DNA of 56,488 nt from a virus. Lineage: Duplodnaviria > Caudoviricetes. This document shows, piece after piece, positions 3,012 through 54,726 of this stretch (its first letter is position 1; every line of letters starts with the position of its first letter). Made by a program: the position numbers and the translations under genes. The stretch covers positions 1 to 56,488 of IMG/VR virus record IMGVR_UViG_3300012665_001166. The stretch is one strand, 5' to 3'. The notes below the pieces were generated by a model. It did no database searches and was not told where the DNA came from. It saw only the letters and a list, made by a program, of their open reading frames with translations.

Positions 3012-3048
3012 TAACAACGTAGCAAAAAGACTATAAAAGAAGAATAAC

Positions 3049-7454: not shown

Positions 7455-7456
7455 TA

Positions 7457-7488: not shown

Positions 7489-7507
7489 ATAATTAATTGA
7501 CTTAGTT

Positions 7508-9917: not shown

Positions 9918-10123
9918 GTAAAATACTAAAACAAGACGAATTAGACCTAATCGCTTTAGAAGAAAGAAAGGTTAGAGCTCTAGAGAAAATTGCAGCATCA
10001 GTAGATGCATTGACTATTTGGTTTGAAGAAGTAGATAAAGATGATTGGAGCGAACGCATCCAGTTCTACTTGAATGAGTTTCATAAATTTCAAAAGCCAA
10101 AAGACCCAACTGTAAATGGATAA
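9914..10123 (+). CDS. Hypothetical protein (69 aa)
   Basis: Overlaps both neighbours in operon style (ATGA); helical composition. Confidence 0.65.
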   Translation: MSKILKQDELDLIALEERKVRALEKIAASVDALTIWFEEVDKDDWSERIQFYLNEFHKFQKPKDPTVNG

Positions 10124-14881: not shown

Positions 14882-16503
14882 TGGGAGTTTTCGCAAAAAA
14901 GGACGATGAATCGTTCCAAGAATATAGAGAAAGGGTTGTAAATAAACTATCCCAATCTTTTTGTGGCGCTAAATGGTACAATGCTACCATCTGGTTAGGT
15001 AACGGTACGACAGCAAGTTGTCATCACCCACCTGCACATAAAATACCTTTAGAGGAAGTAGCAAAATCTTACAAAGCAATTCACAATACAACTTATAAGA
15101 AAGCCATCCGTAAGCAGATGATGGAAGGTGAAAGACCTAAGGAATGTGAATATTGCTGGAAGATAGAAGATTTAGGTCCTGATAAAGTATCTGATAGAGT
15201 TTACAAATCAGTTATTTACACAGATGAAGAATTAAAGCAAGCAAAAGGTGAATTAGGCTATACAGAAGATGTTGACTTAAAAACATTAGAGATTGCTTTT
15301 GACCCTAACTGTAACTTCGGCTGTTCATATTGTAACGCTTCTTTTTCTACTACTTGGCAGAACGATATTAAAAAGTTTGGCCCATATCAGAATTTAGTAT
15401 CTGACGGAGCTGGAGCTTTTCAACATGACGGAAGACATGCAATGCCTTATGGTAGAAAAAACGAAGGTAACCCCTATATAGAAGCTTTTTGGAAATGGTG
15501 GGAAGCAGAATTACAATACTCTTTAAGAGAGTTAAGAGTAACAGGAGGTGAGCCAACTATGTCTCCAGACTTTTGGAAGCTAATGGATTGGTGGAAACGC
15601 AACCCACAATGTGAAGTTCCTTTTGCAGTAAATTCAAACTTAGGTCAGAAGAAAGAGTTACTAGATGCTCTTATAGAATCTACTCACAGTTTTAAAGATT
15701 TTAGTTTATACACTTCTTGTGAAGCAACAGGACTGCAAGCCGAGTATATTAGATACGGCCTTGAATGGGATACTTGGTTAAAAAATATGTACCGAGTTAA
15801 CGAAGAAGCAAACGTAAAGTCTGTAAACGTAATGATGACTATAAACGGATTATGTTTATTTTCAATCACAGAGTTTATGGATGAAATGTTAAAATTAAAA
15901 GCAAAGCATGGCGCTCATGCAGCTATAATGTCTTTTAATATACTACGTTTTCCTTCCTTCCAATCAATAGTAACGCTCCCTGTTTATATTAGAATGGAAA
16001 GAGCAGCTCATATTGAAAAGTGGTTAGAGGAAAATTGGAAAGGAGGCTCTAACGGACTACTTGATATGGAAAGAGATGGTATACTTAGAATGATAGAATA
16101 CATTAAACAAGTAGACACAGGTCATGCTTTTACTTCATCATTAGAGAGTCGAGAAAGAGACTTTAAATCTTTCTACGCTCAATACGATGTTAGACGAAAT
16201 AAAGATATTATCAAAGCATTCCCAGAAATTAAAAAATGGTGGGATTCTATACCAGAAACTAAACTAGATGCTCTTAAGGAGGTAATAGATGGAGATGATG
16301 CTAAGTCAAACAGGTACGTTCACGACGTCTTAAAGAAAGCTAAAGAAGAAGGATGGATACTAAACCCACAATGGCATAACCCAGGATCACAAGAGTATAT
16401 AGAACCAGATAATCAACAGCAAGATGATATGATTGATTTGATTGATTTACTAAAGAAAGAAACTGACTTAAAAGGTCCTGGTATAAAACATAAATTAATA
16501 TAG
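14881..16503 (+). CDS. Radical SAM protein with N-terminal twitch/SPASM-like domain (2 of 5)
   Basis: CNFGCSYC and VTGGEPT; CGAKW...SCHHP...ECEYCW. Confidence 0.9.
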   Translation: MGVFAKKDDESFQEYRERVVNKLSQSFCGAKWYNATIWLGNGTTASCHHPPAHKIPLEEVAKSYKAIHNTTYKKAIRKQMMEGERPKECEYCWKIEDLGPDKVSDRVYKSVIYTDEELKQAKGELGYTEDVDLKTLEIAFDPNCNFGCSYCNASFSTTWQNDIKKFGPYQNLVSDGAGAFQHDGRHAMPYGRKNEGNPYIEAFWKWWEAELQYSLRELRVTGGEPTMSPDFWKLMDWWKRNPQCEVPFAVNSNLGQKKELLDALIESTHSFKDFSLYTSCEATGLQAEYIRYGLEWDTWLKNMYRVNEEANVKSVNVMMTINGLCLFSITEFMDEMLKLKAKHGAHAAIMSFNILRFPSFQSIVTLPVYIRMERAAHIEKWLEENWKGGSNGLLDMERDGILRMIEYIKQVDTGHAFTSSLESRERDFKSFYAQYDVRRNKDIIKAFPEIKKWWDSIPETKLDALKEVIDGDDAKSNRYVHDVLKKAKEEGWILNPQWHNPGSQEYIEPDNQQQDDMIDLIDLLKKETDLKGPGIKHKLI

Positions 16504-16504
16504 A

Positions 16505-17746
16505 ATGCCGCAAGATAAATTAGATCAGTTTCCTATAGAAACAGCAACAGCATGTCAGTTTAAATGGACATGGAGTACATTATTCTTATCTGTCGGTACT
16601 TCTTCTAGTTGCCATAGGTGTAAAGGATGGGATGTATCAGAAAATATGCAAGACTTCCATAACCATCCAGGTAAGGTAGCAGATAGAGAAAAAATGTTAG
16701 AAGGACAATGGCCAGGTAATGGTTGTGAATACTGTAAAAAAATAGAAGATGCAGGAGGAACTAGTGAAAGAACAGCTTACATAAATTCAAGCTTATTAGC
16801 ACCAAAAGAGTTAAGAGAAGATAGTTTTGCAACTAAAGTAACCCCAAGGATATTAGAGGTATACTTTACAAACGTATGTAATCAAAAATGTGTATACTGT
16901 TCTCCATTTTTTAGCTCTCTAATACAAAACGAAATAGATAAGTTTGGACCTTTAGAATCGGAATATGACTTAGACGGATTTAAAGGAAGGTCTGATTACG
17001 AAAAACTCAAAGCTGATTTCTGGATATGGATGGATAAGAACTCAACAGAGTTATACCATTTTCAAATACTAGGAGGAGAGCCAATGTATCAACCCGAGTT
17101 TGAAGAATGTTTGAGTTACTTTGAAGAAAGAAACCACCCTAATACCAATTGGAAGATATTTAGTAACCTAAAACACAACCCTGCTAAGTTTAAAGAAAAG
17201 ATTGAAAGAATAAGTAAGTTAATACAAAGCGGTAAGCTAGAATCTTTTGAAATTGTATGTAGTATGGACTGTTGGGGACCTCAAGCTGAATTTGCAAGAT
17301 ACGGAATGAGTCTAGAAGAATGGCAACAAAATTTTAATACATTACTTGAAGATCCATATGTAAAAATTTCTATACACTCCACAATCACTCCAGTTACTTT
17401 ACCGACAATGGCTGAGTTTTATAGAAAAGTACTAGAGTGGAATAAAATAAAGAAAGTTGACTTTGGATGGAATACAGTTGCAAGACCTACTTTTATGAAT
17501 CCAGACCAATTAGGGACTTATGCAAAACCGTATTTCGATGAACTACTAGAAGTAATACCAGAAGACGATCATAGAAGACAATACCTTCAAGGGTTTGCTA
17601 CACAAGTTACAACTCACCCTATTGATTATGAGTTGATACATAGGTTAAAGAAGTACTTAGATAAGATAGATGAAAGAAGAGGTACCAACTGGAAAGCTTT
17701 ATACCCTTACTTAATTAACATATATGACAAAAATAAAACCATCTGA
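16505..17746 (+). CDS. Radical SAM protein (3 of 5)
   Basis: CNQKCVYC and ILGGEPM; CQFKW...SCHRC...GCEYC. Confidence 0.9.
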   Translation: MPQDKLDQFPIETATACQFKWTWSTLFLSVGTSSSCHRCKGWDVSENMQDFHNHPGKVADREKMLEGQWPGNGCEYCKKIEDAGGTSERTAYINSSLLAPKELREDSFATKVTPRILEVYFTNVCNQKCVYCSPFFSSLIQNEIDKFGPLESEYDLDGFKGRSDYEKLKADFWIWMDKNSTELYHFQILGGEPMYQPEFEECLSYFEERNHPNTNWKIFSNLKHNPAKFKEKIERISKLIQSGKLESFEIVCSMDCWGPQAEFARYGMSLEEWQQNFNTLLEDPYVKISIHSTITPVTLPTMAEFYRKVLEWNKIKKVDFGWNTVARPTFMNPDQLGTYAKPYFDELLEVIPEDDHRRQYLQGFATQVTTHPIDYELIHRLKKYLDKIDERRGTNWKALYPYLINIYDKNKTI

Positions 17747-19073
17747 GGGGAATAAAACATTCTGTATTGCTCCATGGACACATACATACCTTTCGCCACA
17801 AAGCGAAAGAAGGCTTTGCTGTGCATCGAGAGAAAAAGCAGAATGGGCTACACAGTATTTAGATGCAGAAAAAGCCTCAGAAGGAGCTAACTATAGTCCT
17901 ATAACCCTGGAAGAGCATTGGAACTCAGAATATATGAAAGGTATACGTAGAGATTTAATGCAAGGAAAAGAGATACCTCAATGTGCTGTATGTAATGATA
18001 AATTACTAAACATTTCTATATATCGAGATTATTTTACGAAAACATTATTTCCAAATAAGATAGAAGAGGCTTTTGAGAAAACAAGAGAAGATGGTCATAC
18101 AGAGATGAAACCAATTTCTTTCGATTACAGGATAAAAAATCTATGTAATTTTAAATGTAGAATGTGCGGCGATCAATTATCATCATCTTGGGAAGCAGAA
18201 AGAAGAATGATGGGACATTACGATATGCCAGGTAATACAGACTACTGGGCTCAAAAACATAATAAACCTGTTATTGAAACCTTTCAAAGAGATGTTGCTG
18301 AAAAGGAATTATGGGAAGCGGTAAAGAGCGGTACCATAGAAGAAATCTACTGGGTAGGAGGAGAACCTTTAATGTGGGATATACACTGGGAGATAATGGA
18401 CTACTTAGTAAAAACCGGTGGCTCTAAGAATGTATGGATACGTTATAATTCGAATTTTTCTAGAACAACATACAAAGGGTATGACCTTAAGGAATTACTT
18501 CCTCATTTTAAACAAGTACAGATCTGTGCATCTATTGACGGGACAGGAAGTATTGTAGAGTATGTTAGACATGGTATTAAATGGAATGAATGGATAAAGA
18601 ATTTTAAAGAATATACATTTTTAAATAAGCAATATGGTGAGTATGGAATTGCATTTGATCTTACAATAACAACACCAGGTCTATTTAGCTTAAAATCTTT
18701 ATTTGATCTATCAGTTGAACTAGATGTACACACCTTAATAAAAACAACTTTTGCTTTTGATAGTAGTATAATAATGTGCCCTCAAGTATTACCTAGACCT
18801 TTATTTAACGAAGTTATAGACGATGTACTAGACCACATTAGACCTATTGTAGTAGAGAAACCAAAATATAACTACTGGATTACTTGTTTAGAAGATTTAA
18901 AAAATAGACAAACATTCCAAGAGAAGTACGAAGACTGGAGAGACGGTTTTAGGAGAGGTAAAGAAAGGTTAGAACAGGTAGATACTTTCAGAGGAGATGA
19001 AGGTAAGTTGCAAGAAATTTTTAAACAAAATAAAAAAGTATTAGACTGGTGGAATCAAACAAACATGATATAG
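17724..19073 (+). CDS. Radical SAM protein (4 of 5)
   Basis: CNFKCRMC and WVGGEPL; CIAPW...LCC...QCAVC. Confidence 0.9.
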   Translation: MTKIKPSEGNKTFCIAPWTHTYLSPQSERRLCCASREKAEWATQYLDAEKASEGANYSPITLEEHWNSEYMKGIRRDLMQGKEIPQCAVCNDKLLNISIYRDYFTKTLFPNKIEEAFEKTREDGHTEMKPISFDYRIKNLCNFKCRMCGDQLSSSWEAERRMMGHYDMPGNTDYWAQKHNKPVIETFQRDVAEKELWEAVKSGTIEEIYWVGGEPLMWDIHWEIMDYLVKTGGSKNVWIRYNSNFSRTTYKGYDLKELLPHFKQVQICASIDGTGSIVEYVRHGIKWNEWIKNFKEYTFLNKQYGEYGIAFDLTITTPGLFSLKSLFDLSVELDVHTLIKTTFAFDSSIIMCPQVLPRPLFNEVIDDVLDHIRPIVVEKPKYNYWITCLEDLKNRQTFQEKYEDWRDGFRRGKERLEQVDTFRGDEGKLQEIFKQNKKVLDWWNQTNMI

Positions 19074-20272
19074 AAAATATTCCGTATAAGGAAAAATCTT
19101 TTTGCGTACTTCCCTGGATACATTTAGCAACCCACCCTATAGGTACCGTAACTCCTTGTTGTATAACAGATATGGAGAACGATATGAGTACTGCGAAGAA
19201 AGACGGTTTTAATATGTTTTTAAATAAAGATAAATTAGAGGATATAGCAAACTCAGGTTTATTTAAAGATATAAGAAAACAGATGATGAAAGGAGAATAT
19301 CCTTCAGCATGTAAAACTTGTTACTTTTACGAAAAGAGTCAAGTCTATAGTAAGCGAATGGAAAGTAATTTAAAGTTTAAAGAACACATTGAAGCTTGTT
19401 TTGACAATACATTAGAGGACGGAACTCTTAAACAAGTAGATTATAGGTACATTGAATTAAGACTAGGAACAGTTTGTAATTTAAAATGTGTAACTTGTAA
19501 TCCTTTTAGTAGTAATAGGTGGAATGAAGATGTTTCTGCATTTAAAGATACAGAGTTTGAGAAAAGCTATTTTAAATGTGATATAAGAACAGAATGGTAT
19601 AGAGATACTAACTTTTATGATGAGTTATTAACAAAATGTGAATACTTAGAAGAGGTTTGGATCAATGGAGGAGAACCTACTTTGATTAGAGAACATGGAT
19701 ATTTTTTACAAAAGTTAATAGAATTAGGAAAAGCAAAAGATATTAACCTACATTATAGTATTAATATGACAAGCATTCCAGACGATTTTATTAAAATATG
19801 GAAGCAATTTAAACAGGTACGTTTACATTTATCTATAGACGATCTGGAAGAAAGAAACGATTATATAAGATACGGATCGAAATGGGATGTTATTTTTTCT
19901 AATTTTAAGAAAATATTAAAATATAAAAACATATTTACGTTGGAAGTTTGCCAAACTGTAAGTATATTAAATGTAATGAATATAGATAACTTCAAGAAGT
20001 TCTGTCTAGATCATGAAATTACAGTAGCGCACAACTATGTACATCACCCAGCTCTACATCATGTTGCAGTACTACCAGCCCATTTAAAAAAGAAACTACT
20101 TAACAGCATACAGTATCTACGTCCGGATGAGAAAAAAAGACTTGTTGCAGAGTTAGAACAACAGCCGCTTGAAAATACCTTTCAAAAGTTTCAAGAGTTT
20201 ACAAAATTACTAGACATAAAACGAAACATTAAAATACACGATTACTTAGAGGAATGGAAAACGTTAATATAG
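19049..20272 (+). CDS. Radical SAM protein (5 of 5)
   Basis: CNLKCVTC and INGGEPT; CVLPW...PCC...ACKTC. GTG start is uncertain. Confidence 0.9.
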   Translation: MESNKHDIENIPYKEKSFCVLPWIHLATHPIGTVTPCCITDMENDMSTAKKDGFNMFLNKDKLEDIANSGLFKDIRKQMMKGEYPSACKTCYFYEKSQVYSKRMESNLKFKEHIEACFDNTLEDGTLKQVDYRYIELRLGTVCNLKCVTCNPFSSNRWNEDVSAFKDTEFEKSYFKCDIRTEWYRDTNFYDELLTKCEYLEEVWINGGEPTLIREHGYFLQKLIELGKAKDINLHYSINMTSIPDDFIKIWKQFKQVRLHLSIDDLEERNDYIRYGSKWDVIFSNFKKILKYKNIFTLEVCQTVSILNVMNIDNFKKFCLDHEITVAHNYVHHPALHHVAVLPAHLKKKLLNSIQYLRPDEKKRLVAELEQQPLENTFQKFQEFTKLLDIKRNIKIHDYLEEWKTLI

Positions 20273-21255
20273 GTAAAAAAGTCTCTACAGACTATGAAAT
20301 AGTTCGTAACGAATATGATATATTTGCTGAAATAGAAAGACTAGGTAAAGCACATATACTGTTTGACTCAGAAGGTATAAAAAGTACGAAAGACATTCAG
20401 CTATATTCACAAACCTTACTAAACCGTTCGATACTGGGGGCTTCTATGAACGCGTTAGAATCATTTACAGTTAGGTATACCTCTGAAGAAGAAAAAGAAG
20501 CCTGTCTAGAAGCTAAGAAAAAAGGTACAACTAATATAGAAGAAGAGACAGTTAGGTATACAATAAGCCCGTTAGGTTACAGATTGACTAACCCGTTAGA
20601 CAGTATACATAGATCTACAGGTATATTTGGATGTAGTATTACATATGGAATAGGTATTCCTGAAGACCAAACATTTAGTCACTTACTGCAAGAGAATTTA
20701 AAAACCCCTGTCCATAATTTTGGAATACCAGGTGGTTCTATACAGAAAATTAGAAAATCTTTTATATCAATAAACAACTACTATAAGTTGGAAACAGCTA
20801 TACTTGTACTACCCTCTATGAGCAGGTTTGAATTTATAGGAAAAGAACCAGTAGATAAAGTAGATACTTTGTACTCAGAAGGATACGTACCTGCATTTAA
20901 CCCTATTAACCCTGCTCGAAGAGGTTTTTACGAAGCACTTTATACATACTATCAAGATATAACATTTTTCGATGAGTTTAGTAAAAATTTACAATTAATA
21001 AAACTAAACGCGCAGATAAACGGTACAAAGCTTTACCTTTTTACATGGGATTATGTATTACTAAATCTAGCAACTCACTATAAAATTACAGGCTTGGAAA
21101 ATAGCCCTCTTGTTCGTTTTATAGAGAATGACGAACTACAAAGAGGAGAAAAGGTAGTTGATTTCGCTCGAGATGGAATGCACCCGGGATTAAGATCTCA
21201 GAAAAGTATTACAGATTTAATTCTAAGAAAATTAGGAAAGGGTAATTTGATATGA
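20254..21255 (+). CDS. SGNH/GDSL-like hydrolase or acyltransferase
   Basis: FGCSITYG (block I), NFGIPGGS (block II) and DGMHP (DxxH, block V). Confidence 0.7.
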   Translation: MENVNIGKKVSTDYEIVRNEYDIFAEIERLGKAHILFDSEGIKSTKDIQLYSQTLLNRSILGASMNALESFTVRYTSEEEKEACLEAKKKGTTNIEEETVRYTISPLGYRLTNPLDSIHRSTGIFGCSITYGIGIPEDQTFSHLLQENLKTPVHNFGIPGGSIQKIRKSFISINNYYKLETAILVLPSMSRFEFIGKEPVDKVDTLYSEGYVPAFNPINPARRGFYEALYTYYQDITFFDEFSKNLQLIKLNAQINGTKLYLFTWDYVLLNLATHYKITGLENSPLVRFIENDELQRGEKVVDFARDGMHPGLRSQKSITDLILRKLGKGNLI

Positions 21256-22064
21256 GAATAATACAAAGCTTTGTACCTACTTCTTATCAAACAGATTTTG
21301 AAGCATATCTTAGAATGACAGAAGTATCTGTAGAGTCTATTTTAAAGTACCATGATGAAGTAATATTATACACAACTCCAGAAGTTGCAGAATTAGTTAA
21401 AGAAAGAGGTATAGGTTATACAGATATAAATGTAGAATTGTTTAAAGAGGTTGAAAACATACCTCTAAGTAACTATGCAATACCTAAGATACTTTGTTAC
21501 CTAGCACAAAACAAACCGTTTATACATTTAGATTACGATGTAGTGTTACTTAGTAGGCTTATTACACCTAAAGATTTCTTAATAGGGTACTACGACTTTG
21601 ACTTAGTGAATAGAGAAACTAAGCCAACAGACCTAAACACATTGAGTGACTACTACTTAAAAGATCTTGTACAGATACATGAACATCTTCCACCTGAGGT
21701 GCAAAATACAGTGGATTTAAGGTTCTTACCAAATTTTTCAATATTCGGTGTTAATAACCTTAATCTAAATAAAACTATCTTTAAAAGTATACTAACATTC
21801 TACCATAACAATATAGAATCTTTTAAGCAGCTAAATCATGCTCCAAGTATGGTAGAGCAGTTTTTATTTATAGTATACCTCCTTTATTTTTTAGATCGAC
21901 AAAAAACATTAGAGGAAGTTATCACTGTAGTGGAAAAGTGTAATATTGCACCACAGGAGTACCTTAACGGCCATAAGCACTTTGCTAACTTCTTACACCT
22001 ACATTCCGAAAAATACGACTCAGAGTTTTTAATAAAGCTAGACAAGTACATAAATGACAAATAA
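21252..22064 (+). CDS. DUF6734-like protein, putative GT-A fold transferase
   Basis: YAIPKILCYLAQNKPFIHLDYDV, VEQF and HLH motifs; parallels 7508..8362. Confidence 0.55.
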   Translation: MRIIQSFVPTSYQTDFEAYLRMTEVSVESILKYHDEVILYTTPEVAELVKERGIGYTDINVELFKEVENIPLSNYAIPKILCYLAQNKPFIHLDYDVVLLSRLITPKDFLIGYYDFDLVNRETKPTDLNTLSDYYLKDLVQIHEHLPPEVQNTVDLRFLPNFSIFGVNNLNLNKTIFKSILTFYHNNIESFKQLNHAPSMVEQFLFIVYLLYFLDRQKTLEEVITVVEKCNIAPQEYLNGHKHFANFLHLHSEKYDSEFLIKLDKYINDK

Positions 22065-22710
22065 GAAAGCGATTATTATATCCGGACTTCTTTATAATCT
22101 CTCAGATAACTTTATAAAATTTATAGAAGATCTAGGGGAGGAAGTACATACATACGTACATACCTGGAACACCCCAGATAATCTAAGATGGGTTAATAAG
22201 TTGATGAGATATCAACATAAGACTAGAATTACAATTAACATGGAAGTTCCAATGTACGAAGAGAAGAAGTATCTAATACTACACTCTACGTACCAAGCTG
22301 CAAACTTAGTAGATAACTTACACGACTACTCTACTATTATTAAATTTAAACCAGATTTAGAAACAGACCGCATAGAGTATAATAAGAATGTAGAACAGTA
22401 TTTCATAGAAGCTGCTATACATGCACATCCGTTACTAAATGGTAGAAAGAAAGAAGAGTTTGTCTATGGAAGGTACTTATACAAGACATTAGATGAAAGA
22501 ATGTTTACCGCTTATCCGGAAGGTATAGAAAAGCTATTTCATAGAAGCTATACAGATTTTTTTGACGATATATACGGACTTGATTCTTACCTTAAAAAAA
22601 AATATACGGAAAACTACGAAGGGAGCATCCTTTGGACTAATTATATAAAAGAAAGAAAGCTAGGAATTATACAAGACCTAACTCTTAAATTACCAAATTG
22701 TAAAAACTAA
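22054..22710 (+). CDS. Hypothetical protein, possibly glycosyltransferase-like
   Basis: KKAIIISG...YVHTW...YSTIIKFKPDL pattern recalls uncharacterised proteins of polysaccharide loci; weak. Confidence 0.45.
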   Translation: MTNKKAIIISGLLYNLSDNFIKFIEDLGEEVHTYVHTWNTPDNLRWVNKLMRYQHKTRITINMEVPMYEEKKYLILHSTYQAANLVDNLHDYSTIIKFKPDLETDRIEYNKNVEQYFIEAAIHAHPLLNGRKKEEFVYGRYLYKTLDERMFTAYPEGIEKLFHRSYTDFFDDIYGLDSYLKKKYTENYEGSILWTNYIKERKLGIIQDLTLKLPNCKN

Positions 22711-45691: not shown

Positions 45692-46954
45692 ATGGAAAGA
45701 TTGTACGTAGGAAATGAGCACGGATTAGAAATGTTTACTATTCCACAGTTCCTAACTAGCGAAGAATGTGATCATATTGTCAGGTTAACAGAGAACGGGA
45801 GCACCCGATCAAGTGTGGCCGGTACTGGAACACAGTCTATTAAGTACGATGAAGGTCGTACTAGCTCTACAGCGGTGCTACTTGATACAGACCCAATCGT
45901 GAGTCAAGTAAATCAAAAAATGTACACAGAGTTAGGGATAGAAGGACCTTATTCAGAACCAACCCAAGGACAGATTTACGAAGTAGGTCAAGAATTTAGA
46001 CACCACCAGGATGCTTTCGGTAAAGACGCATACCACAATCACTGTTTATCAAGTGGCCAAAGAACTTGGACATTTATGATATATCTTAACGATGTAGAAG
46101 AAGGCGGTGAAACAGATTTTCCTACTATTGGGAAAACTTTTACCCCTCAGAAAGGAATGGCAGTTGTTTGGAAGAATTCAAACGGTACCGGGACTGAAAA
46201 CTCTGCTGCTTTGCATGCAGGTTTACCTGTAAAAAGAGGTAGAAAGGTTATTATTACCAAATGGTTTAGAGAAAATGTATTTAATAGTGCAGAAGATGCT
46301 AGATTAGCAAAAGAATACCTAGAAATGACACAACCTCAGCAGATAACACAACCTACCGAAAAAGTATTCTCTAAAAGTGAAGATTTACCAAAATTATCTG
46401 AGTTAGGATTTAAAGTAGTAAAAGTACCTCAAAAAACTTTTCAATTAATACAGGAAGCTTATAATTTACTAAAACCTAGTGTTAGACCGGAAGAGTGGGG
46501 AGGTATTACAAACTTTATACACGATAATCAAGGTAATGCACCGGTAGAGATTTTCCCTATGGATTCTTTTACTAGGATAAGAGAAATAATCGCAGAAGAA
46601 CTACAACCACTCCATGAAGAGTTTATAGGTAATAAAGAAAGATTAATTCCTAAATGGATTTACGGTATTAGATCTTATAAAAGAGGAGCTATACTAGAAC
46701 CACATACAGATACTTTAGTAACTCATCATATTTCTTCTATAGTAATTGTGGATAAACAAGTAGATAGAGATTGGCCCTTAGACATACAAGACCACTTGGG
46801 GAGATGGCATAAAGTTTACGCAGAAGCAGGAGAAATGATTTTATATGAGTCTGCTACAAATAAGCATGGCCGAATCGAACCTTTTGAAGGTGAGTACTTT
46901 AGAAATTTCTTCTTACATTATACATTAGCAGATTATAAATTTGTAGCACAGTAA
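45692..46954 (+). CDS. Prolyl 4-hydroxylase-like protein with two tandem 2OG-Fe(II) dioxygenase domains
   Basis: Domain 1: FLTSEEC, RTSS, Y..GQEFRHHQD, GQRTWTFMIYLNDVEEGGETDFP, LHAGLPV, KVIITKW. Domain 2: YGIRSY, LEPHTD, WPL, GEMILYES, HGR, NFFLHY. Confidence 0.88.
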   Translation: MERLYVGNEHGLEMFTIPQFLTSEECDHIVRLTENGSTRSSVAGTGTQSIKYDEGRTSSTAVLLDTDPIVSQVNQKMYTELGIEGPYSEPTQGQIYEVGQEFRHHQDAFGKDAYHNHCLSSGQRTWTFMIYLNDVEEGGETDFPTIGKTFTPQKGMAVVWKNSNGTGTENSAALHAGLPVKRGRKVIITKWFRENVFNSAEDARLAKEYLEMTQPQQITQPTEKVFSKSEDLPKLSELGFKVVKVPQKTFQLIQEAYNLLKPSVRPEEWGGITNFIHDNQGNAPVEIFPMDSFTRIREIIAEELQPLHEEFIGNKERLIPKWIYGIRSYKRGAILEPHTDTLVTHHISSIVIVDKQVDRDWPLDIQDHLGRWHKVYAEAGEMILYESATNKHGRIEPFEGEYFRNFFLHYTLADYKFVAQ

Positions 46955-49708
46955 ATGGACTATATTGTTGTTGGAACTAGTCGGTGTGAATACCAAGCAT
47001 GGCAGATAAAGTTACTACACTGGTCATTAAAAAAAGTAAATCAAAAAGGTAAATTAGTAGTTTTACTTTCCGGAGATTACGGACATAGAGACGAAACACC
47101 TGATTTTAGTTTTTTATCAGACGCAATAGTAATAGATCAACCAGATTATGCACACTTGTGGCAAGTAGCTAACAACGATTGGTGGGGTGGTATTCCTAAT
47201 AAGTATAGATCTGTAGAATGGTTATGTGAAAATAACTACTTCAAAGAAGAAGATAAGCTTCTATTCTTAGATCCTGATATGGTGTTTACTAAATCAGTAG
47301 ATTTTGATTTAGAAGATGATCATATAATTGGGCAAGACTTTATACATTACATGCCACTTAATGGATGGGAAGATCGAGATAAAGATCCTCTCAATACTAA
47401 AGGAATAATGTACCCTTTTGCTTTGAAATTTAAGACTTTAAAAAAGTTTTATAAGAAGTATACAGAATACTGTGAACAGATCCGTAAAAAAGAAGGTAGA
47501 TGGGAAGCCGAGATGTGGGGATTAGATTATGCTATAAAGGACTCTAATATTAAAGTAGAACTTGTACAGGATATCGGCACCTGTACAGCATGGAATGACC
47601 GCGAAAGAAATATACTAGGAAGTATTATGCATTACCCTAATGTAATACCGGATAAAGAAGGTAATACGTTATTTTTTAAACAAGATCATACTTTCGATCA
47701 AAAAAAGAAGTACGATTTATCTCAAACAACTAGCGAAGCAGGAAATAAAATGGTTACTGGAGTTGATCAATTTAGAACAGATTATGTTTACTATACAAAA
47801 TGGAATTTTGAAAGCATTTTTAAATTCTACGACGGTAGTAAAGGTTATATAGTTTTTAGACCCTGGCCAGGAGGTTTTAATAATATAAGAATGTCATTAG
47901 AGCTAGCAGTTTGTATAGCTTACTTAACAAACCGAAAATTAGTATTAACACCAGAGTATAAAATGTATCTCTTAGAAGGACACTCTAGTATGGAGTCGTT
48001 TTTTGATACCTCTAACCTAGGAGTAATCTCTATTCCGTTTGATAATTTCTGTAAAGAGAAAGGATTAGATGCTAATTACGAAAGTGTAAAAGCAGTATCT
48101 AAAGTACTAGACTACGACGCAGTAAGACATGTAATAAACTTTGAAAAAGTTCCAGTTCCTACTAAGTTTTCAAAACATCGCCCAGTACTTAACAAAGAAG
48201 ACCTTTATACAGGTGAGGAATACTTATTCTTAGAGTCGAATTTACTAGGAGTAACACATCAGACTTTATTTACTAGTTTAGATGTAGAAATTAAAAAACT
48301 TATTGCAAAATATGTACACTATCGAACAGATATTTTTGACTTAGCTTGGCAGTTTATTAATAAATTAGGTGATAAGGAGTATTATTCTATTCATATTAGA
48401 CGAAATGATTTCCAATATAAGGAGTTGTTTATTCCTTGCGAACAGATACTAGAAAATATAAAAGATGTAATTCCGCAAGGAAGTAAGCTGTATATAGCAA
48501 CAGATCATAGAGATCGAGAATTTTTTAAACCATTATCTGAATACTATCAGACATTTTTTTACGAAGATGTAAAAAAAGAAGTAGCTATTTTTACCGAGTT
48601 TGATAATAACTGGATTCCAATTATAGAACAGTTTATATGTACTAGAGGTATTAAGTTTATAGGTAATAGTCATTCAACATTATCTTCTTACATTTACCGA
48701 ATGAGAGGATATATGTCAGATATTGAGGATAAAAATTACTACCTTAATACAGAAACATTTGATCAACATAAACAAATACCTTTTACAGCTGATACACAGT
48801 TTAAAGGGAACTGGTTTAGAGAATATAATGATAGTTGGAGTTTTGGCAACGGAAGTATATTTGTATCAATTGCAAGTTATTGTGATTCTCAGATCATAGA
48901 CACATTAAAAAGCCTATACTCAGAAGCTATAGACCCTAGTAGAGTACACGTAGGAGTTAATCTACAAGATACAGAGGAAGCATACGAAAAGCTAAAGCAA
49001 CTTAACTTTCCAAATTTAAAGATAATATTTACACCTAAAGAAGAAGCAAAAGGTGTTGTATATGCTAGAAATAGAATAAAAAATGAGCTCGTAGGAAATG
49101 AAGATTATTTCTTACAGATAGATTCACATAGTAGATTTAGACAAGCTTGGGATGCAATTTTAATAAATCAGTATAATAGTATAGAAGAAGGTAAGGTAAT
49201 ATTAACCACATATCCTAATCATTTTGACGTCCCAGATTATGAAAAAAAGTATTTAGATAAATCAAATAATACCCCATTACGTATTAGAAGGTTTTTGCAA
49301 GAATCGAGTAACAACGACAACAGGCATATAGCTGAAAATTTACCTACGTTAGAAGACTATAAGGTAGCAGAGACTAGATGGGCTGCTGCAGGATTTTTAT
49401 TTACTAGAAGAGAATGGTTGGAGGAAGTAAAGATACCGAATAATATAAGATTTAACGGAGAAGAAGATTTTCAAACATTTCTCAGTTACTTAAAAGGCTG
49501 GAACTTACGAATTACATCTTTAGCAACAGTGTGGCATAATTACGACTTTAAAACATCTGATACAGATGAACCGTATAGAGAACACAACACTAAGTACTTT
49601 ATAGACGATACAGCAATAGACTTAGTTAATGATTTTCTATTTAACCAAACCCACACACGAACATTAGATGATTTAGAAAGTTATTTTAATATAAAATTAA
49701 AAAGGTAA
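46955..49708 (+). CDS. Tri-domain glycosyltransferase: GT95/GT96-like + O-fucosyltransferase-like + GT60-like
   Basis: N: YQAWQIKLLHWS, PNK, LDPDMVF, WEAEMWG. Middle: GGFNNIRMSLE, HIRRNDF, LYIATD, IEQFIC...FIG..HSTLS. C: IFVSIASYCD, YFLQIDSHSRF..WD, AAGFLF, FNGEE. Confidence 0.78.
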   Translation: MDYIVVGTSRCEYQAWQIKLLHWSLKKVNQKGKLVVLLSGDYGHRDETPDFSFLSDAIVIDQPDYAHLWQVANNDWWGGIPNKYRSVEWLCENNYFKEEDKLLFLDPDMVFTKSVDFDLEDDHIIGQDFIHYMPLNGWEDRDKDPLNTKGIMYPFALKFKTLKKFYKKYTEYCEQIRKKEGRWEAEMWGLDYAIKDSNIKVELVQDIGTCTAWNDRERNILGSIMHYPNVIPDKEGNTLFFKQDHTFDQKKKYDLSQTTSEAGNKMVTGVDQFRTDYVYYTKWNFESIFKFYDGSKGYIVFRPWPGGFNNIRMSLELAVCIAYLTNRKLVLTPEYKMYLLEGHSSMESFFDTSNLGVISIPFDNFCKEKGLDANYESVKAVSKVLDYDAVRHVINFEKVPVPTKFSKHRPVLNKEDLYTGEEYLFLESNLLGVTHQTLFTSLDVEIKKLIAKYVHYRTDIFDLAWQFINKLGDKEYYSIHIRRNDFQYKELFIPCEQILENIKDVIPQGSKLYIATDHRDREFFKPLSEYYQTFFYEDVKKEVAIFTEFDNNWIPIIEQFICTRGIKFIGNSHSTLSSYIYRMRGYMSDIEDKNYYLNTETFDQHKQIPFTADTQFKGNWFREYNDSWSFGNGSIFVSIASYCDSQIIDTLKSLYSEAIDPSRVHVGVNLQDTEEAYEKLKQLNFPNLKIIFTPKEEAKGVVYARNRIKNELVGNEDYFLQIDSHSRFRQAWDAILINQYNSIEEGKVILTTYPNHFDVPDYEKKYLDKSNNTPLRIRRFLQESSNNDNRHIAENLPTLEDYKVAETRWAAAGFLFTRREWLEEVKIPNNIRFNGEEDFQTFLSYLKGWNLRITSLATVWHNYDFKTSDTDEPYREHNTKYFIDDTAIDLVNDFLFNQTHTRTLDDLESYFNIKLKR

Positions 49709-49709
49709 T

Positions 49710-51257
49710 ATGTTTAATTTAGGTTTTTTTGGATCACATAACGGTAGTTTAGCTATCTCTTTTAAAGGAGAGGTTCTAGAAGTAGTGGAACTTGAACGTT
49801 TGATTAACGTAAAGAATGCTGCTTTCTTTTACTGGGGACATCATGATAATATAGTAGAACTATTAACGGAAATTAAAGACTACTTTAAAACAAAATACGG
49901 AGTAGAAAAATACGATAACGTAATATACAACTCAGTAGATAAAGAGATGTGGAAAATATTCCCAGCTAACAATTACCAGTGGGTACCTCATCATGAAGCT
50001 CATGCTTATTCCGGACTATACCAATCTAACTACGACAAGGCTTTGATTATATCTTTCGACGGAGGTAGTGATGAAGGTTTTTTTAATATCTACTTAGGAG
50101 ATAAAAACAGCGATATACCTGTAGATAAAATTTATGTAGGTAAAAAAGACTATGCAGTTTCTTATATGATGCCTGCTCACTTTATCTCAGATATAAAACA
50201 AGAATGGATATACACAGGTAATTTAGTATACGCCGGAAAGCTAATGGGATTAGCCGGCTTTGGAAAAGTAGATCATAACCTTATTCAATCTTTCAGAGAT
50301 TTTTACTCTTCCAACACAACAGACAACATAAGTGAGGCATTAACTCGCTTTATGAAGATATTCAATATAGAATCGGAACAGACACGATTTGAAGGTACCT
50401 ATGCAGTTAACTTAGCCGCTACTAATCAGTATGTTTTTGAGCAGTTATTTGAAGAAGAAACAAGAAACATCTTAGAACTTCACAATAATCTTCCGCTTAT
50501 TATTACTGGCGGATGCGGATTAAACATACTACTAAATACTAAGTTAGCAAAACAAAGAGAAACTTTCGTTACTCCTAACCCAAACGATACAGGCTTAGCA
50601 GTAGGGTTAGTTTGTAGTAAAATAAAACCATATACTCCGGTAGACACAACCTACATAGGCCCAGAAGTATGGGATAGAAAGTTACTACCTAAAGTATTAC
50701 ACGATAGAAAAGGTATTAAGATAGAAATAAAAGAGGTAGTACAAAAGCTAATAGATGGTGAAATTATAGGAGTAGTAAGAGGTAAGTCTGAACACGGACC
50801 AAGAGCTTTAGGAAATAGAAGTATTATATGTGACCCAACAATTGGAGAAATGAAAGATACTTTGAATGCTAAAGTGAAAGGAAGAGAGTATTATAGACCT
50901 TTCGCACCGGTAGTTAGGTTAGAAGATATTAATAAGTATTTTAACTGGGATAAAGAGTCTAGATGGATGTCTTTCTGCCCTGAAGTTAGAGAAGAATACA
51001 AAGGTATATTAAAAGCTATCACCCACGTAGACGGAACCGCTAGAGTACAGACAGTTACAAGAGAACAAAATGAATTCCTTTACGACTTATTAACAGAAAT
51101 GCATAATCAAAAAGGTATTGGAGTAATTTTAAATACATCTTTTAATATAGCAGGAAAGCCTATACTGAATACATATGAAGATGCCCTTTGGGTATTAGAT
51201 AATAAACAAATGGATGGTGTCTTATTAGAAAACTACTATATTAAGAAGAATGGATAA
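49710..51257 (+). CDS. O-carbamoyltransferase (NodU/CmcH/TobZ family), copy 1
   Basis: HHEAHA, DGG, GKLMGLA, EHGPRALGNRSI, REYYRPFAP, HVDGTARVQTV and LNTSFN motifs. Confidence 0.93.
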   Translation: MFNLGFFGSHNGSLAISFKGEVLEVVELERLINVKNAAFFYWGHHDNIVELLTEIKDYFKTKYGVEKYDNVIYNSVDKEMWKIFPANNYQWVPHHEAHAYSGLYQSNYDKALIISFDGGSDEGFFNIYLGDKNSDIPVDKIYVGKKDYAVSYMMPAHFISDIKQEWIYTGNLVYAGKLMGLAGFGKVDHNLIQSFRDFYSSNTTDNISEALTRFMKIFNIESEQTRFEGTYAVNLAATNQYVFEQLFEEETRNILELHNNLPLIITGGCGLNILLNTKLAKQRETFVTPNPNDTGLAVGLVCSKIKPYTPVDTTYIGPEVWDRKLLPKVLHDRKGIKIEIKEVVQKLIDGEIIGVVRGKSEHGPRALGNRSIICDPTIGEMKDTLNAKVKGREYYRPFAPVVRLEDINKYFNWDKESRWMSFCPEVREEYKGILKAITHVDGTARVQTVTREQNEFLYDLLTEMHNQKGIGVILNTSFNIAGKPILNTYEDALWVLDNKQMDGVLLENYYIKKNG

Positions 51258-52155
51258 TACAATTTTTATATCTATTGCTAGTTTTATAGACACAGACTTA
51301 AGAAACACTATACTAAGCTGTATCAACCAAGCTAAACACCCAGAAAAACTTTCTTTTGGGGTTGTATTACAGTACAACAACGAAGAGAGCACTAACGAAA
51401 CTTGTATAGATGATTTAATTAATAAGTACAATATTAGAATAAAGAAATACTGGTTTGAAGAATCTAAAGGAGGATGTTGGGCTAGAAATCAGGTAACTAC
51501 TTTATACCAAAATGAAGACTACATACTTCAGTTAGATGCACATATCAGGATGGTTAAAAACTGGGATGTACTTTTGGTTAAAGAGTATTTAGAATTAAAA
51601 AAAACTGTTAATAAACCGCTACTTTCTTACTTATCACCATCATTTTTTAGAAATGAAGAGTTAGGGTTAGACTACAACTTTAGACATATAGATGATCCAT
51701 ACATTATAAATGTACCTACAATAAAGTCTATTACCGCTGATTACTGGCCTGTGTTTGGAGGGTATGAAGACGAAGCCCATACAAATAAAAAACCTAATAA
51801 TGTATCTTTACTTTACGCCGGTTTTGTATTTACTCAAGGAAGCTGGTTGTTAGAAGTAAAAAATGACCCAGAACACTACTACACAGGAGAAGAATTTGCT
51901 TTATCAATACGATCATTCACTCACGGGTATAATATTTATATACCGAGTCAGATAATGTCTTGGCATTTATCTAGATCTAATCATATACATCATTTCAAAG
52001 TACTAGATGGTAATAAAAACCATATCAAGGCAATGGAACGACTTTATAAACTTATATTTGGAGGAGATTTAGATGAATACGGATTAGGGACTGAGAGAAC
52101 ATTACAGCAATATGAAGAATTTGCAAAAATTAATATAAAAGAAAGAAAAATATGA
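51250..52155 (+). CDS. GT60-like GlcNAc transferase (Gnt1-type), stand-alone
   Basis: IFISIASFID, SKGGCWARN, YILQLDAHIR..NWD, YAGFVF, YYTGEE and YGLGTERTL motifs. Confidence 0.82.
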   Translation: MDNTIFISIASFIDTDLRNTILSCINQAKHPEKLSFGVVLQYNNEESTNETCIDDLINKYNIRIKKYWFEESKGGCWARNQVTTLYQNEDYILQLDAHIRMVKNWDVLLVKEYLELKKTVNKPLLSYLSPSFFRNEELGLDYNFRHIDDPYIINVPTIKSITADYWPVFGGYEDEAHTNKKPNNVSLLYAGFVFTQGSWLLEVKNDPEHYYTGEEFALSIRSFTHGYNIYIPSQIMSWHLSRSNHIHHFKVLDGNKNHIKAMERLYKLIFGGDLDEYGLGTERTLQQYEEFAKINIKERKI

Positions 52156-53723
52156 ACATACTAAGTGTGTTTTTAGGACACAACGCATCAATGACCATTT
52201 CAAAAGATGGAGAGATATTAGAAGTCCTAGAATTTGAAAGACTAACTAATGTTAAAAACGGCGGTTGTTTAGCTCAAGTAGGAGTTAAAGATCCTAAAGT
52301 TATTATGACATTAATTAAGGATCACCTAATGGGAAAATTTGGGGTAAAGCATTTTGATTTACTACTTCTTAACCAGATAGATCTTTCTTTTTTAAGAAAA
52401 CAACATTTCACTACAGATACAGAATTATTAAAATTTTTTAATGCAGAAAGGTATGAATTAGTTAATCATCAACATGGACATATGGCTTGCGCTTTCTACC
52501 AATCTTCGTATAATAGTATAAGAGGATGTAGCTTTGATGGCGGCGGTAATGATGGTAATTTTAACATATTCGACTGTTCTAGAGAAAGCGGAATTAGACA
52601 GATAGCACAGATACCTAACCATACTTTAGGAATGAGATTAGCAGAACTAGGTCAGTATACCAAGTCGCTAAGAAGAGAAAGAGACTTTTGGACAGACGGA
52701 GGTTTAGTATACCCCGGTAAACTTATGGGACTATCCTCATACGGTAAAGTAGTAGATGAATGGCTTCCAGCATTTGAAGAATTCTACTCAGGAGTTTATC
52801 ACTCCAGTGATCTACACGCAAACTACAAAAGACTAAAAGAAAAATTAAATTTACCCGACGAATACGAAGGAGAACTAGAAGTTAATTTAGTAGCTACTTC
52901 ACAAAGAATGTTTGAAGAAAAGTTTGATAAATTAGTAAGACCTTATTTCGAAAATCAGAATTCATTTATAATCACCGGAGGGTCAGCTTTAAATATAATT
53001 AATAATCAACGTTTATCTAAAGAAAGACAAATATTCGTTCCACCTAATCCAAGTGACTGTGGTTTATCTTTAGGATTTATGTTAGATTACTTAAAACCTA
53101 AAACTGCATTTAACGGAACCTATATGGGACCTGAAGTTTGGGATAAATCAATGTTGACAGAGTATGTAGAAAAGTATAACGGTAAGAAGTATAGCTTTGA
53201 TGATATCATCCCAGACTTAATAGCAGGGAAAATTATAGGAGTAGTACGTAAAGGGTCAGAATTAGGACCAAGGGCATTAGGTAATAGAAGTATAATCTGT
53301 CATGCCGCTATACCAGGGATGAAAGATATCTTAAATGCAAAGGTTAAAAATAGAGAAGCATATAGACCATTTGCTCCTGTTTGCCGACTAGAAGATTCTT
53401 ATCAATATTTTGATATTAAGAACACAGACAATAAGTGGATGTCATTTTGCCCTGATGTAAGACCAGAATATAGAGGTATATTATCTTCAGCAACACATGT
53501 TGACGGAACCGCCCGACTACAAACAGTAACTCAGTCGCAAAATGACTGGTTATTTTACTTACTAACCAGATTTAAAGATTTTAATCCTCATCCGGTGTTA
53601 CTAAATACATCTTTTAACATAGCAGGTAAGCCAATATTAAACAGTTACCGAGATGCAATCTGGATGTTAGAAAATACTCAAATGGATGGATTAATATTAG
53701 AAGATTATTATATAAAAAAATAA
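52152..53723 (+). CDS. O-carbamoyltransferase, copy 2
   Basis: HQHGHM, DGGG, GKLMGLS, ELGPRALGNRSI, RPFAP, HVDGTARLQTV and LNTSFN motifs. Confidence 0.93.
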   Translation: MNILSVFLGHNASMTISKDGEILEVLEFERLTNVKNGGCLAQVGVKDPKVIMTLIKDHLMGKFGVKHFDLLLLNQIDLSFLRKQHFTTDTELLKFFNAERYELVNHQHGHMACAFYQSSYNSIRGCSFDGGGNDGNFNIFDCSRESGIRQIAQIPNHTLGMRLAELGQYTKSLRRERDFWTDGGLVYPGKLMGLSSYGKVVDEWLPAFEEFYSGVYHSSDLHANYKRLKEKLNLPDEYEGELEVNLVATSQRMFEEKFDKLVRPYFENQNSFIITGGSALNIINNQRLSKERQIFVPPNPSDCGLSLGFMLDYLKPKTAFNGTYMGPEVWDKSMLTEYVEKYNGKKYSFDDIIPDLIAGKIIGVVRKGSELGPRALGNRSIICHAAIPGMKDILNAKVKNREAYRPFAPVCRLEDSYQYFDIKNTDNKWMSFCPDVRPEYRGILSSATHVDGTARLQTVTQSQNDWLFYLLTRFKDFNPHPVLLNTSFNIAGKPILNSYRDAIWMLENTQMDGLILEDYYIKK

Positions 53724-53727: not shown

Positions 53728-54726
53728 ATGAAAACAGCATTAGTACTTGGTGCCGGTGGTTTTATCGGTTCACATTTAGTTACAAGATTAAAATCAGAAG
53801 GATATTGGGTAAGAGGTGTAGATATCAAGAAACCAGACTTCTCAGAATCAACAGCAGACGATTTCGTTATTGCAGATTTAAGAGATCCTTTAAAAACATC
53901 TTTGGTAATGTATTCACCTCAACAGGTATCTGCAGCTAGAGCAGGAATGACTCACAGTTTTGATGAAGTTTACCAATTAGCAGCTGATATGGGAGGAGCT
54001 GGTTATATTAACACAGGAGAACATGACGCTGATGTAGTTCATAACTCAATGTTAATAAATCTTAATGTATTAGACCAAGCTTACAAGAAAAACGTTAAAA
54101 AGATCTTCTATGCATCGTCTGCATGCGTATATAACGAACATAACCAGTTAGATCCTGAAAATCCTAACTGTAAAGAAGATTCAGTATACCCAGCTCAACC
54201 AGATTCAGAATACGGATGGGAAAAATTATTTTCAGAACGATTATATACAACTTATAACCGCAACCACGGTATAGATGTTCGAATTGCCCGTTTTCATAAT
54301 ATTTTTGGACCAGAAGGTACATTTGATGGTGGAAAAGAGAAAGCACCAGCAGCTATATGTCGTAAAGTTGCAAGCACACCGACAAACGGAGAAATAGAGG
54401 TATGGGGTGATGGATTACAGACTCGTTCATTCCTGTATATTGATGAAGCAATAGAAGGAGTTCGTCGTCTAATGAATTCAGACTATAAAGAACCAATTAA
54501 TATAGGATCAGAAGAGATTATCTCAATGAATGGGTTAGCTAACTTAGTATCTAAATTAGCAGGTAAGACTATTAATATTAAAAATATACCAGGTCCACAA
54601 GGAGTAAGAGGTAGGACATCAGACAACACTTTGATTAAAGAGAAGTTAGGTTGGGCACCAACACAACCATTACATATAGGTTTAACAGAAACTTATAAAT
54701 GGATAGCAAGTAAAATAGAGTCTTAA
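53728..54726 (+). CDS. NAD-dependent epimerase, GDP-mannose 3,5-epimerase-like
   Basis: GAGGFIG, LAADMGG.GYI, SSACVY, YGWEK, GGKEKAPAAICRK and GVRGR.SDN motifs. Confidence 0.85.
   Translation: MKTALVLGAGGFIGSHLVTRLKSEGYWVRGVDIKKPDFSESTADDFVIADLRDPLKTSLVMYSPQQVSAARAGMTHSFDEVYQLAADMGGAGYINTGEHDADVVHNSMLINLNVLDQAYKKNVKKIFYASSACVYNEHNQLDPENPNCKEDSVYPAQPDSEYGWEKLFSERLYTTYNRNHGIDVRIARFHNIFGPEGTFDGGKEKAPAAICRKVASTPTNGEIEVWGDGLQTRSFLYIDEAIEGVRRLMNSDYKEPINIGSEEIISMNGLANLVSKLAGKTINIKNIPGPQGVRGRTSDNTLIKEKLGWAPTQPLHIGLTETYKWIASKIES

Follow-up and report, generated by a model that had tools for sequence, protein, structure and literature searches.

What does a virus use a prolyl hydroxylase for? According to one virome paper the use of the viral prolyl 4-hydroxylase (P4H) "remains cryptic" (PMC9301287), and a Chlorovirus review gives the role and target of the PBCV-1 P4H as unknown (PMC7019647). 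The same question is raised by a locus in the linear IMG/VR virus record IMGVR_UViG_3300012665_001166, all 56,488 bases of which were analyzed and are referred to here as the window. In it, a P4H gene precedes a gene for a 917-residue protein with three glycosyltransferase domains, and an open reading frame (ORF) for a protein rich in Pro and Thr (PT) repeats lies downstream. We propose, with a probability of roughly 0.6, that the phage hydroxylates prolines of its own PT-repeat proteins in the cytoplasm of the host and, coupled to this, O-glycosylates these proteins, a reading that draws on sequence comparison and structural models.

The 917-residue protein is encoded by one single ORF with an ATG start and is confirmed as one chain with three glycosyltransferase domains (Table 1), so that the three-domain architecture proposed in an earlier note on this DNA is borne out. 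Its full-length AlphaFold2 model has a mean predicted local distance difference test score (pLDDT) of 90.2 and a predicted template modeling score of 0.87. Foldseek searches with this model retrieve POFUT2 and POFUT1 as the top solved structures, followed by polypeptide GalNAc-transferases (pp-GalNAc-Ts) that match the third domain, and these neighbors support the families named for domains 2 and 3 in the earlier note. The boundaries it had given for them, 47840–48830 and 48850–49708, agree with the 47846–48715 and ~48854–49705 found here. The three motifs it had singled out (DPD, RRND and DSH) are all present and nearly or fully invariant: among 22 full-length homologues reaching down to 45% identity, residues D106, P107, D108, R482, D485, D723, and H725 do not vary, R483 and N484 are kept in 21, and S724 in 19.

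Domain 2 is POFUT-like. It matches the entire profile of PF10250 O-FucT, the family of POFUT1, POFUT2, and relatives (GT65/GT68), at E = 1.1e-24 (positions 1–326 of 326; 88.1 bits, cut-off 31.5), the match being confirmed on the DNA, and it has a GT-B fold whose top Foldseek matches are the C. elegans and human POFUT2 and POFUT1 (E = 1e-10 to 1e-8). The sequences HIRRND (480–485) and STLSS (574–578) align with the HLRRKD and STFS blocks of human POFUT2, and with their residues invariant or kept in 21 of 22 homologues the GDP-sugar motif is in place. When a profile of the 22 homologues is compared with human POFUT2, the HxRRxD, ATD, and S-T-x-S blocks of domain 2 fall into register, and with the same profile no significant alignment to POFUT2 was obtained for the N-terminal catalytic region. 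POFUT1 and POFUT2 proper act on folded acceptor domains of the EGF or TSR cysteine-knot type. Domain 3 matches PF11397 GlcNAc/GT60, a family of transferases that put alpha-GlcNAc on Thr, Ser or hydroxyproline of polypeptides, far above its cut-off (best stretch residues 678–865, E = 1e-36, 127.6 bits against 21), and PHROG 24687 ('glycosyltransferase') spans residues 634–866 (E = 2.5e-22). It has a GT-A fold, with pp-GalNAc-T structures among the top Foldseek matches, and its invariant D723 and H725 form a DxH motif, which we take to be the metal motif of the GT60 family.

The GT95-like assignment of domain 1 stands only by way of intermediate homologues, a protein atlas and the GT-A fold. Compared directly, residues 1–295 (46955–47839) score 16.5 bits against PF23452 HPAT (E = 0.0057), below the gathering cut-off of 23.9, in an alignment of residues 8–219 to profile positions 7–230 of 307; a profile search against solved structures gave nothing significant (best E = 0.11). 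An exhaustive HMMER search of 1.84 billion representatives yielded 77 domain-1 relatives at E ≤ 1e-3, many of them stand-alone proteins of 250–390 residues; among 10 clusters of such stand-alone homologues three have a name, each time 'hypothetical protein'. HPAT is matched at E ≤ 0.01 by 25 of 38 aligned domain-1 homologues (best 1.8e-40), and relatives tied to the window protein at E = 5.5e-38, 1.8e-30, and 1.4e-21 score 30, 35, and 39 bits against HPAT, above the cut-off. In the protein atlas 16 of the 30 matches to domain 1 are HPAT-bearing clusters from tailed phages and bacteria. Because of these homologue matches, linked relatives and atlas neighbors we place domain 1 in the HPAT family, probably as a phage and bacterial branch of it.

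The model of domain 1 (pLDDT 91.3) shows the GT-A fold and DxD motif looked for in an HPAT-family member, and residues D106, P107, D108, P154, M187, H226, and K242 are invariant across 57 domain-1 sequences. Its nearest solved folds are retaining GT8/GT6-type enzymes, namely glycogenin (Z = 16.9) and the Skp1 alpha-galactosyltransferase Gat1 (6mw8; Z = 16.4), followed by Bogt6a (15.8) and LgtC (15.7), with GT-A neighbors spanning Z = 14–17. Mimivirus R699 is also among the fold neighbors (Z = 12.8), and the best match in BFVD is a 266-residue glycosyltransferase of cyanophage S-SCSM1. HPAT, hydroxyproline O-arabinosyltransferase, is a Golgi enzyme with a type II membrane anchor that transfers L-arabinofuranose to peptidyl hydroxyproline. 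We see no such anchor in the window protein because in the models strand 1 of the fold begins directly at the N-terminus; some stand-alone domain-1 homologues have hydrophobic N-termini.

Table 1. Positions in the window of the three-domain glycosyltransferase, its domains and motifs, and the genes of the surrounding cassette.
Feature	Coordinates	Strand	Description
917-residue three-domain glycosyltransferase	46955..49708	+	From ORF call, Pfam, homologues, and model
Domain 1, residues 1–~290	46955..47824	+	Predicted HPAT/GT95-family GT-A domain; DPD 47270–47278; no membrane anchor in the model
DPD, residues 106–108	47270–47278		Motif of domain 1
Domain 2, residues 298–587	47846..48715	+	POFUT-like GT-B (PF10250); HIRRND 48392–48409, STLSS 48674–48688
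RRND, residues 482–485	48398–48409		Motif of domain 2
Domain 3, residues ~634–917	48854..49705	+	GT60 (PF11397) GT-A domain; DSH 49121–49129
DSH, residues 723–725	49121–49129		Motif of domain 3
Two-domain 2-oxoglutarate (2OG)-Fe(II) oxygenase	45692..46954	+	N-terminal half collagen-type P4H; C-terminal half divergent oxygenase-like
NodU/TobZ-type O-carbamoyltransferase 1	49710..51257	+	Carbam_trans_C E = 1.5e-60; phrog_1601; NodU 168.8 bits, below cut-off
Stand-alone second GT60	51250..52155	+	PF11397 E = 3e-44; fused to the 917-residue enzyme in some relatives
NodU/TobZ-type O-carbamoyltransferase 2	52152..53723	+	From Pfam and NCBIfam
Short-chain dehydrogenase/reductase (SDR), sugar-nucleotide epimerase/reductase	53728..54726	+	phrog_540 E = 1e-76
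Candidate acceptor, Pro/Thr-rich modular repeat protein	54764..56488	+	Cut by the window end; 575 residues seen

The fused enzyme is common in metagenomes and is a real, conserved protein: among 4103 candidates 175 proteins are relatives at E ≤ 1e-3, and among the 120 matches listed 64 cover 100% of the query at 44–94% identity. In IMG/VR, 331 stretches encode a relative, and all locus counts below refer to the best 80 of these 331, which gave 77 loci (individual loci carry L numbers). Two of them have the gene split into two ORFs, L011 at 10001–12665 (601 + 298 residues) and L013 at 7125–9861 (575 + 335 residues), which may be frameshifts or sequencing errors. With megablast the gene had no match in 50,697 phage records; tblastn against the phage collection gave only six partial matches, none covering at least 80% of the query, and no cultured phage of that collection encodes the fused enzyme. 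The family is essentially viral, because relatives are found in only four of 185,579 genomes of prokaryotic species, and all four are metagenome-assembled genomes (MAGs) or single-amplified genomes (SAGs): one Bacteroidetes SAG, two Saprospiraceae MAGs, and one Alphaproteobacteria MAG. At E ≤ 1e-5 NCBIfam has no family for the 917-residue protein, the P4H or the second GT60.

The window itself is a fragment of a myovirus, with an estimated completeness of 32% and nearly all of its genes on the + strand. It encodes tail fibers, a tail sheath, a tape-measure-like protein, DnaB, a gp32-like protein, a 5′-3′ exonuclease, and both ribonucleotide reductase (RNR) subunits, and no tRNAs were found in it. 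The nearest cultured relative is Flavobacterium phage vB_FspM_immuto, whose tail sheath is 66% identical, and which had no match to the 917-residue gene in the tblastn search of the phage collection.

The P4H is joined to the glycosyltransferase as closely as two genes can be without overlap, its TAA stop codon directly abutting the ATG. Residues 92–193 match 2OG-FeII_Oxy_3 (E = 3.9e-17), and the best matches among solved structures are all collagen-type P4Hs (Bacillus anthracis P4H, 1e-24; human C-P4H alpha-2, 1.8e-20; PBCV-1 P4H, 8.3e-17; Chlamydomonas P4H, 3e-14), not the PHD/EGLN-type hydroxylase of the Skp1 pathway. The C-terminal half (46300–46954) is a separate domain belonging to phrog_2954 with a weak 2OG-FeII_Oxy_4 match. 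Domains of this type also stand alone, at 177–182 residues, where the P4H half is missing (L037 8021–8566, L039 15644–16177, and L045 6674–7222). Successive genes of the cassette overlap or are separated by 0–4 bases, with a 37-base gap ahead of the last ORF; the P4H, the 917-residue enzyme, the two carbamoyltransferases, the second GT60, the SDR, and the Pro-rich ORF form a tight operon. The best named match of the SDR is GDP-L-fucose synthase (NCBIfam Fcl, 113 bits, far under the cut-off of 500).

Because the cassette directly follows DnaB and both RNR subunits, its genes could instead be read as a set for hypermodifying phage DNA, in which a base hydroxylated by the oxygenase would be glycosylated and carbamoylated. 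We consider this very unlikely. By its solved-structure matches the oxygenase is of the P4H type and not of the TET/JBP type, to our knowledge none of the three glycosyltransferase families acts on DNA, and no thymidylate-synthase-like hydroxymethylase was found in the window, which is about 32% of the genome. A study of phage carbamoyltransferases bears on both sides: one of the NodU/TobZ superfamily makes 5-carbamoyloxymethylcytosine and travels with a thymidylate-synthase-like gene, and those located beside glycosyltransferases were on unmodified contigs (PMC8670742).

If proteins are the target, the candidate acceptor in the window is the ORF at the downstream end of the operon. It is 18.8% Pro and 14.6% Thr and is the only one of the 42 window ORFs with at least 10% Pro. 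Two long (T/S)PAP/APVTP tracts of the type TPAPTPAPTAAPVTPAP lie between small Cys-containing globular modules, and full-length homologues in close relatives have 739–966 residues and an equal modular build; in L008 and L009 two more Pro-rich ORFs follow the homologue. Across loci the repeats are of the types TPAP, TPSP, PVTPS, and TPSITTT, with TPPP and TPPPP in L064, and repeats of these kinds are acted on by eukaryotic P4Hs, HPAT, and GT60 enzymes. A collagen-like substrate was considered and rejected, as no window ORF contains a run of four or more G-X-Y repeats. The Pro-rich protein of L044 (7150–8706), which consists of three repeats of a (TPAP)n tract plus a module of about 90 residues, is alone in ending in a short collagen-like GPPGPPGPPGPPGVPGEP tail (a GPPGPP tract). 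The Pro-rich proteins gave little in family scans: nine of ten had no PHROG match and one matched at E ~0.009 only, five of six had no Pfam match and one scored 20.8 bits against a cut-off of 60, and an atlas search with the N-terminal 195 residues gave scores of at most 0.86.

The linkage of these genes recurs across relatives. The 51 loci that include domain 1 fall into 18 lineages when clustered by single linkage with a threshold of at least 80% identity across domain 1, and the ORF immediately upstream codes for the P4H in 42 of the 51 loci and 14 of the 18 lineages. The four exceptions are a six-locus lineage (L032–L034, L040, L043, and G001, the 166.6-kb record behind L041), L037 and L039, which have the SDR upstream, and L045, with only 253 bases upstream. 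On the contig of L047 (538–5618), labeled GVMAG and a giant-virus MAG by that label only, a 462-residue P4H lies directly upstream of a 1237-residue tri-domain relative with 33% identity.

Pro-rich ORFs, defined as having at least 15% Pro and at least 100 residues within the fetched flanks, are present in seven of the 18 lineages, and the gene order is shuffled between them. They lie downstream of the SDR in the window's lineage, directly upstream of the P4H in L036 and L044, directly upstream of the SDR in L039 and in the P4H-less lineage (where the repeat protein has 668–688 residues, TPSITTT/SPVTP repeats and a Pro/Ser/Thr-rich composition), and 5–7 kb upstream in L028/L029 and L038. Loci with P4H and GT60 but without domain 1 have a Pro-rich ORF in five of five cases (L059, L064, L070, L072, and L075), each adjoining the hydroxylase or the GT60 gene, compared with none of 21 GT60-only loci; one of the latter, L068, has a 13%-Pro, 40%-Ser/Thr protein slightly below the threshold. 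The background is three such ORFs among the 180 of a 166.6-kb, 89%-complete related genome.

Gene fusions tie the cassette together further. To the tri-domain chain may be added the second GT60 (1205–1228 residues, e.g. P0017 with 1221), the second GT60 plus a PLOD-type collagen glycosyltransferase domain (GT_PLOD, PF25342; P0050, 1519 residues), GT2 and GT1 domains (P0057, 1532 residues), or a carbamoyltransferase (1439 residues), and an O-FucT–carbamoyltransferase fusion occurs in loci lacking domain 1 (856–860 residues; L070/L072 9986–12556 and L059 1607–4189). Such 'Rosetta stone' fusions are an argument for the enzymes of the cassette acting on a single product. The O-FucT/carbamoyltransferase fusion sits between the P4H and the GT60, with up to four Pro-rich ORFs before it. 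In some close relatives a 274-residue gene, a PF03407 Nucleotid_trans member of the GT77 family (E = 8e-8) that is not in the window, stands between carbamoyltransferase 1 and the second GT60 (L002 10843–11667; also L005, L006, L009, and L010).

That one product need not be a protein, and the cassette might be an auxiliary set that builds or remodels a host envelope glycan (lipopolysaccharide, capsule or exopolysaccharide), with the 917-residue protein as an oligosaccharide builder. Phage glycosyltransferases often change host surface glycans, and NodU-type carbamoyltransferases, by their family name, act on oligosaccharides. The cultured Synechococcus phage S-SCSM1 (L098, record 93780–112751) also lends itself to this explanation, since its annotation shows partly the same genes in the equivalent post-RNR position: four 2OG-Fe(II) oxygenases, a 380-residue stand-alone O-FucT with 29% identity to domain 2, a carbamoyltransferase, a GDP-mannose dehydratase, and a GDP-fucose synthase. 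Envelope glycan synthesis nonetheless appears improbable to us. Scans of the cassette found no membrane-associated domain, flippase, polymerase or lipid-carrier enzyme, the fold neighbors are peptide-directed enzymes, and the tight coupling to a peptidyl-prolyl hydroxylase would be useless for making polysaccharide. The annotated S-SCSM1 genes are separate and not fused, and tblastn found no GT60 match in this phage; through it a split version of the pathway may be open to study in culture.

Hydroxylation-coupled protein glycosylation is the reading that we favor, and all three domains come from families whose characterized members glycosylate proteins. Its observed basis comprises the families, motifs, fold, and operon structure, and the recurrent linkage to P4H and Pro-rich ORFs; from it we infer which protein is the acceptor, which sugars are added, in what order the steps run, that the glycan is carbamoylated, and that the product is located on the virion. 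The 917-residue protein is predicted to be the soluble, cytoplasmic, three-active-site glycosyltransferase of a phage protein-glycosylation operon. The abutting collagen-type P4H would first convert prolines of (T/S)-P-A/S-P-type repeats into 4-hydroxyproline (Hyp). The tri-domain enzyme would then attach and elongate O-linked sugars on Hyp and/or Thr/Ser, with the HPAT-like GT-A and GT60 domains as candidates for priming the peptide and the POFUT-like GT-B using a GDP-sugar to add a residue, probably a 6-deoxyhexose, either on the peptide or on the first sugar; the POFUT-like domain may prime Ser/Thr or extend the glycan. The second GT60 would extend the glycan or add sites, and O-carbamoylation of the sugars would fall to the two NodU-type enzymes. 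What results in the bacterial cytoplasm would be an extended protein with heavy glycosylation, a 'bottlebrush' that is probably a surface fiber or decoration of the virion. The single-chain assembly line of the earlier note, priming Hyp, Ser or Thr and extending the glycan, fits the abutting P4H and the Pro/Thr-rich repeat protein; its hydroxylated acceptor may not be obligatory, as the lineage lacking P4H indicates. A fuller version, in which aquatic tailed phages, probably of Bacteroidota hosts, possess a complete cytoplasmic Hyp-rich or mucin-like pathway whose carbamoylated bottlebrush glycoproteins coat or extend from the virion, is put forward tentatively, at a little under even odds.

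Several observations weigh against this proposal. Domain 1 of the window protein is, as given above, below the HPAT cut-off, and PF10250 also includes members that act on glycans and not on peptides. G001 is 89% complete and has the tri-domain enzyme with no match to the PF13640 hydroxylase, so that domain 1 may not need Hyp; the same lineage suggests that part of the glycosylation can start on Thr/Ser. Eleven of the 18 lineages have no Pro-rich ORF in the fetched flanks, and this includes the L020/L023 group, L094, and L095, where the flank on one side or both reached the full 10 kb; in the L020/L023 lineage two partial genomes, scanned over 34 kb and 36 kb, also had none, nor did the fetched flanks of L047, L048, L094, L095, and L097. 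The synteny counts are not independent events, because the lineages share ancestry, and a virion role for the Pro-rich proteins is a guess because they have no convincing Pfam or PHROG family. The cassette has RNR and replication genes as neighbors, and DNA bases can be modified by phage carbamoyltransferases of the NodU/TobZ type (PMC8670742). In PBCV-1, the best-studied case of a viral P4H, Hyp was not detected in virion proteins (PMC7019647).

Some of these same points would be explained if the enzymes glycosylate proteins other than the PT-repeat proteins, such as the Ser/Thr-rich tail fibers (3–6435) or other virion proteins, or proteins of the host that are modified in the course of takeover. 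The lineages without a Pro-rich ORF, the one without P4H, and the lack of a family assignment tying Pro-rich proteins to virions are all compatible with another acceptor, and the tail-fiber ORFs of the window are 26–27% Ser+Thr. They are, however, only 1–2% Pro, and P4H requires a Pro-containing target. Pro-rich ORFs also recur beside the cassette despite its rearranged order, and they accompany P4H with GT60 (five of five loci) and not GT60 without it (0 of 21). We accordingly rate a different protein acceptor as unlikely.

How the proposed system relates to characterized ones can be seen from four comparisons. In the extensin pathway of plants and green algae, P4H is followed by HPAT (GT95) and then RRA/XEG113 (GT77), with SGT1 (GT96, a peptidyl-serine alpha-galactosyltransferase) acting on Ser. 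The phage locus has a P4H and an HPAT-family domain, some close relatives have a GT77-family gene, and the candidate substrates have (S/T)-Pro-rich repeats, including the TPPPP type in L064. The plant enzymes are Golgi type II membrane proteins, whereas the phage enzyme would be soluble and cytoplasmic in a bacterial host, its domains are fused in one chain with POFUT-like and GT60 domains, and no genes for UDP-arabinofuranose supply are seen in the phage locus. In the Skp1 pathway of Dictyostelium and Toxoplasma, PhyA is followed by Gnt1 (GT60), the two-domain PgtA, and then AgtA/Gat1. The analogy to it drawn in the earlier note holds as a comparison of working, since both are cytoplasmic (as proposed here), have a hydroxylase followed by a GT60, and use multi-domain glycosyltransferases, and Gat1 is the second-best solved fold neighbor of domain 1. 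It fails for the hydroxylase, which by its best structure matches is collagen-type and not PHD/EGLN-type; the domain combination differs as well, and the candidate target is a long repeat protein instead of a single proline of Skp1.

Mycobacteriophages are reported to encode glycosyltransferases that modify their own structural proteins, and here too a tailed phage is proposed to glycosylate its own structural proteins in the host cytoplasm. The mycobacteriophage system reportedly has no hydroxylase, uses other glycosyltransferase families, and targets capsid or tail-tube C-termini and not PT repeats. Mimivirus is reported to modify collagen with a bifunctional lysyl hydroxylase/glycosyltransferase, L230, and a glucosyltransferase, R699 (PMC9546862, PMC12279948). 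As in the phage locus, a virus there encodes a repeat-protein substrate together with a hydroxylase and glycosyltransferases; R699 is among the fold neighbors of domain 1, and some relatives of the 917-residue enzyme contain a PLOD-type glycosyltransferase domain. The Mimivirus system concerns hydroxylysine of Gly-X-Y collagen in an amoebal giant virus, in contrast to a prolyl hydroxylase and PT-type repeats in a tailed phage. By analogy, the phage system would resemble the extensin and Skp1 pathways in working and Mimivirus and mycobacteriophages in logic. It is a member of none of them, because its enzyme is soluble (as predicted) and fused, its hydroxylase collagen-type, its candidate substrate a PT-repeat protein, and its carrier a tailed phage.

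The window contains a second unusual cluster at 7508–22710 (+), between the tail-fiber genes and the tail sheath. It encodes two DUF6734 proteins, a methyltransferase, a weak GT2-like protein, two GT7 (beta-1,4-galactosyltransferase-like) proteins each with a fused ConA-like lectin domain, and five radical-SAM proteins, one bearing a SPASM domain.

A literature search on phage HPAT, GT60, P4H, and Hyp glycosylation, supplementary files aside, found no account of such a phage system. With hydroxylase, glycosyltransferases, and candidate substrate encoded together, the locus provides a concrete and testable answer to what a viral P4H is for, and if the proposal is true the abundant but 'cryptic' viral P4H gene of water columns would be explained. 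Protein O-glycosylation of the GT95, GT60, GT77, and POFUT types, considered eukaryotic, would then extend to phages, with possible gene flow among phages, giant viruses, and eukaryotes. Confirmation would bring HPAT-type and GT60-type protein O-glycosylation to bacteriophages, offer protein engineering a compact, soluble enzyme with which bacteria could build glycans on PT repeats, and reveal a new virion surface chemistry relevant to adsorption, stability, and the evasion of grazing or immunity.

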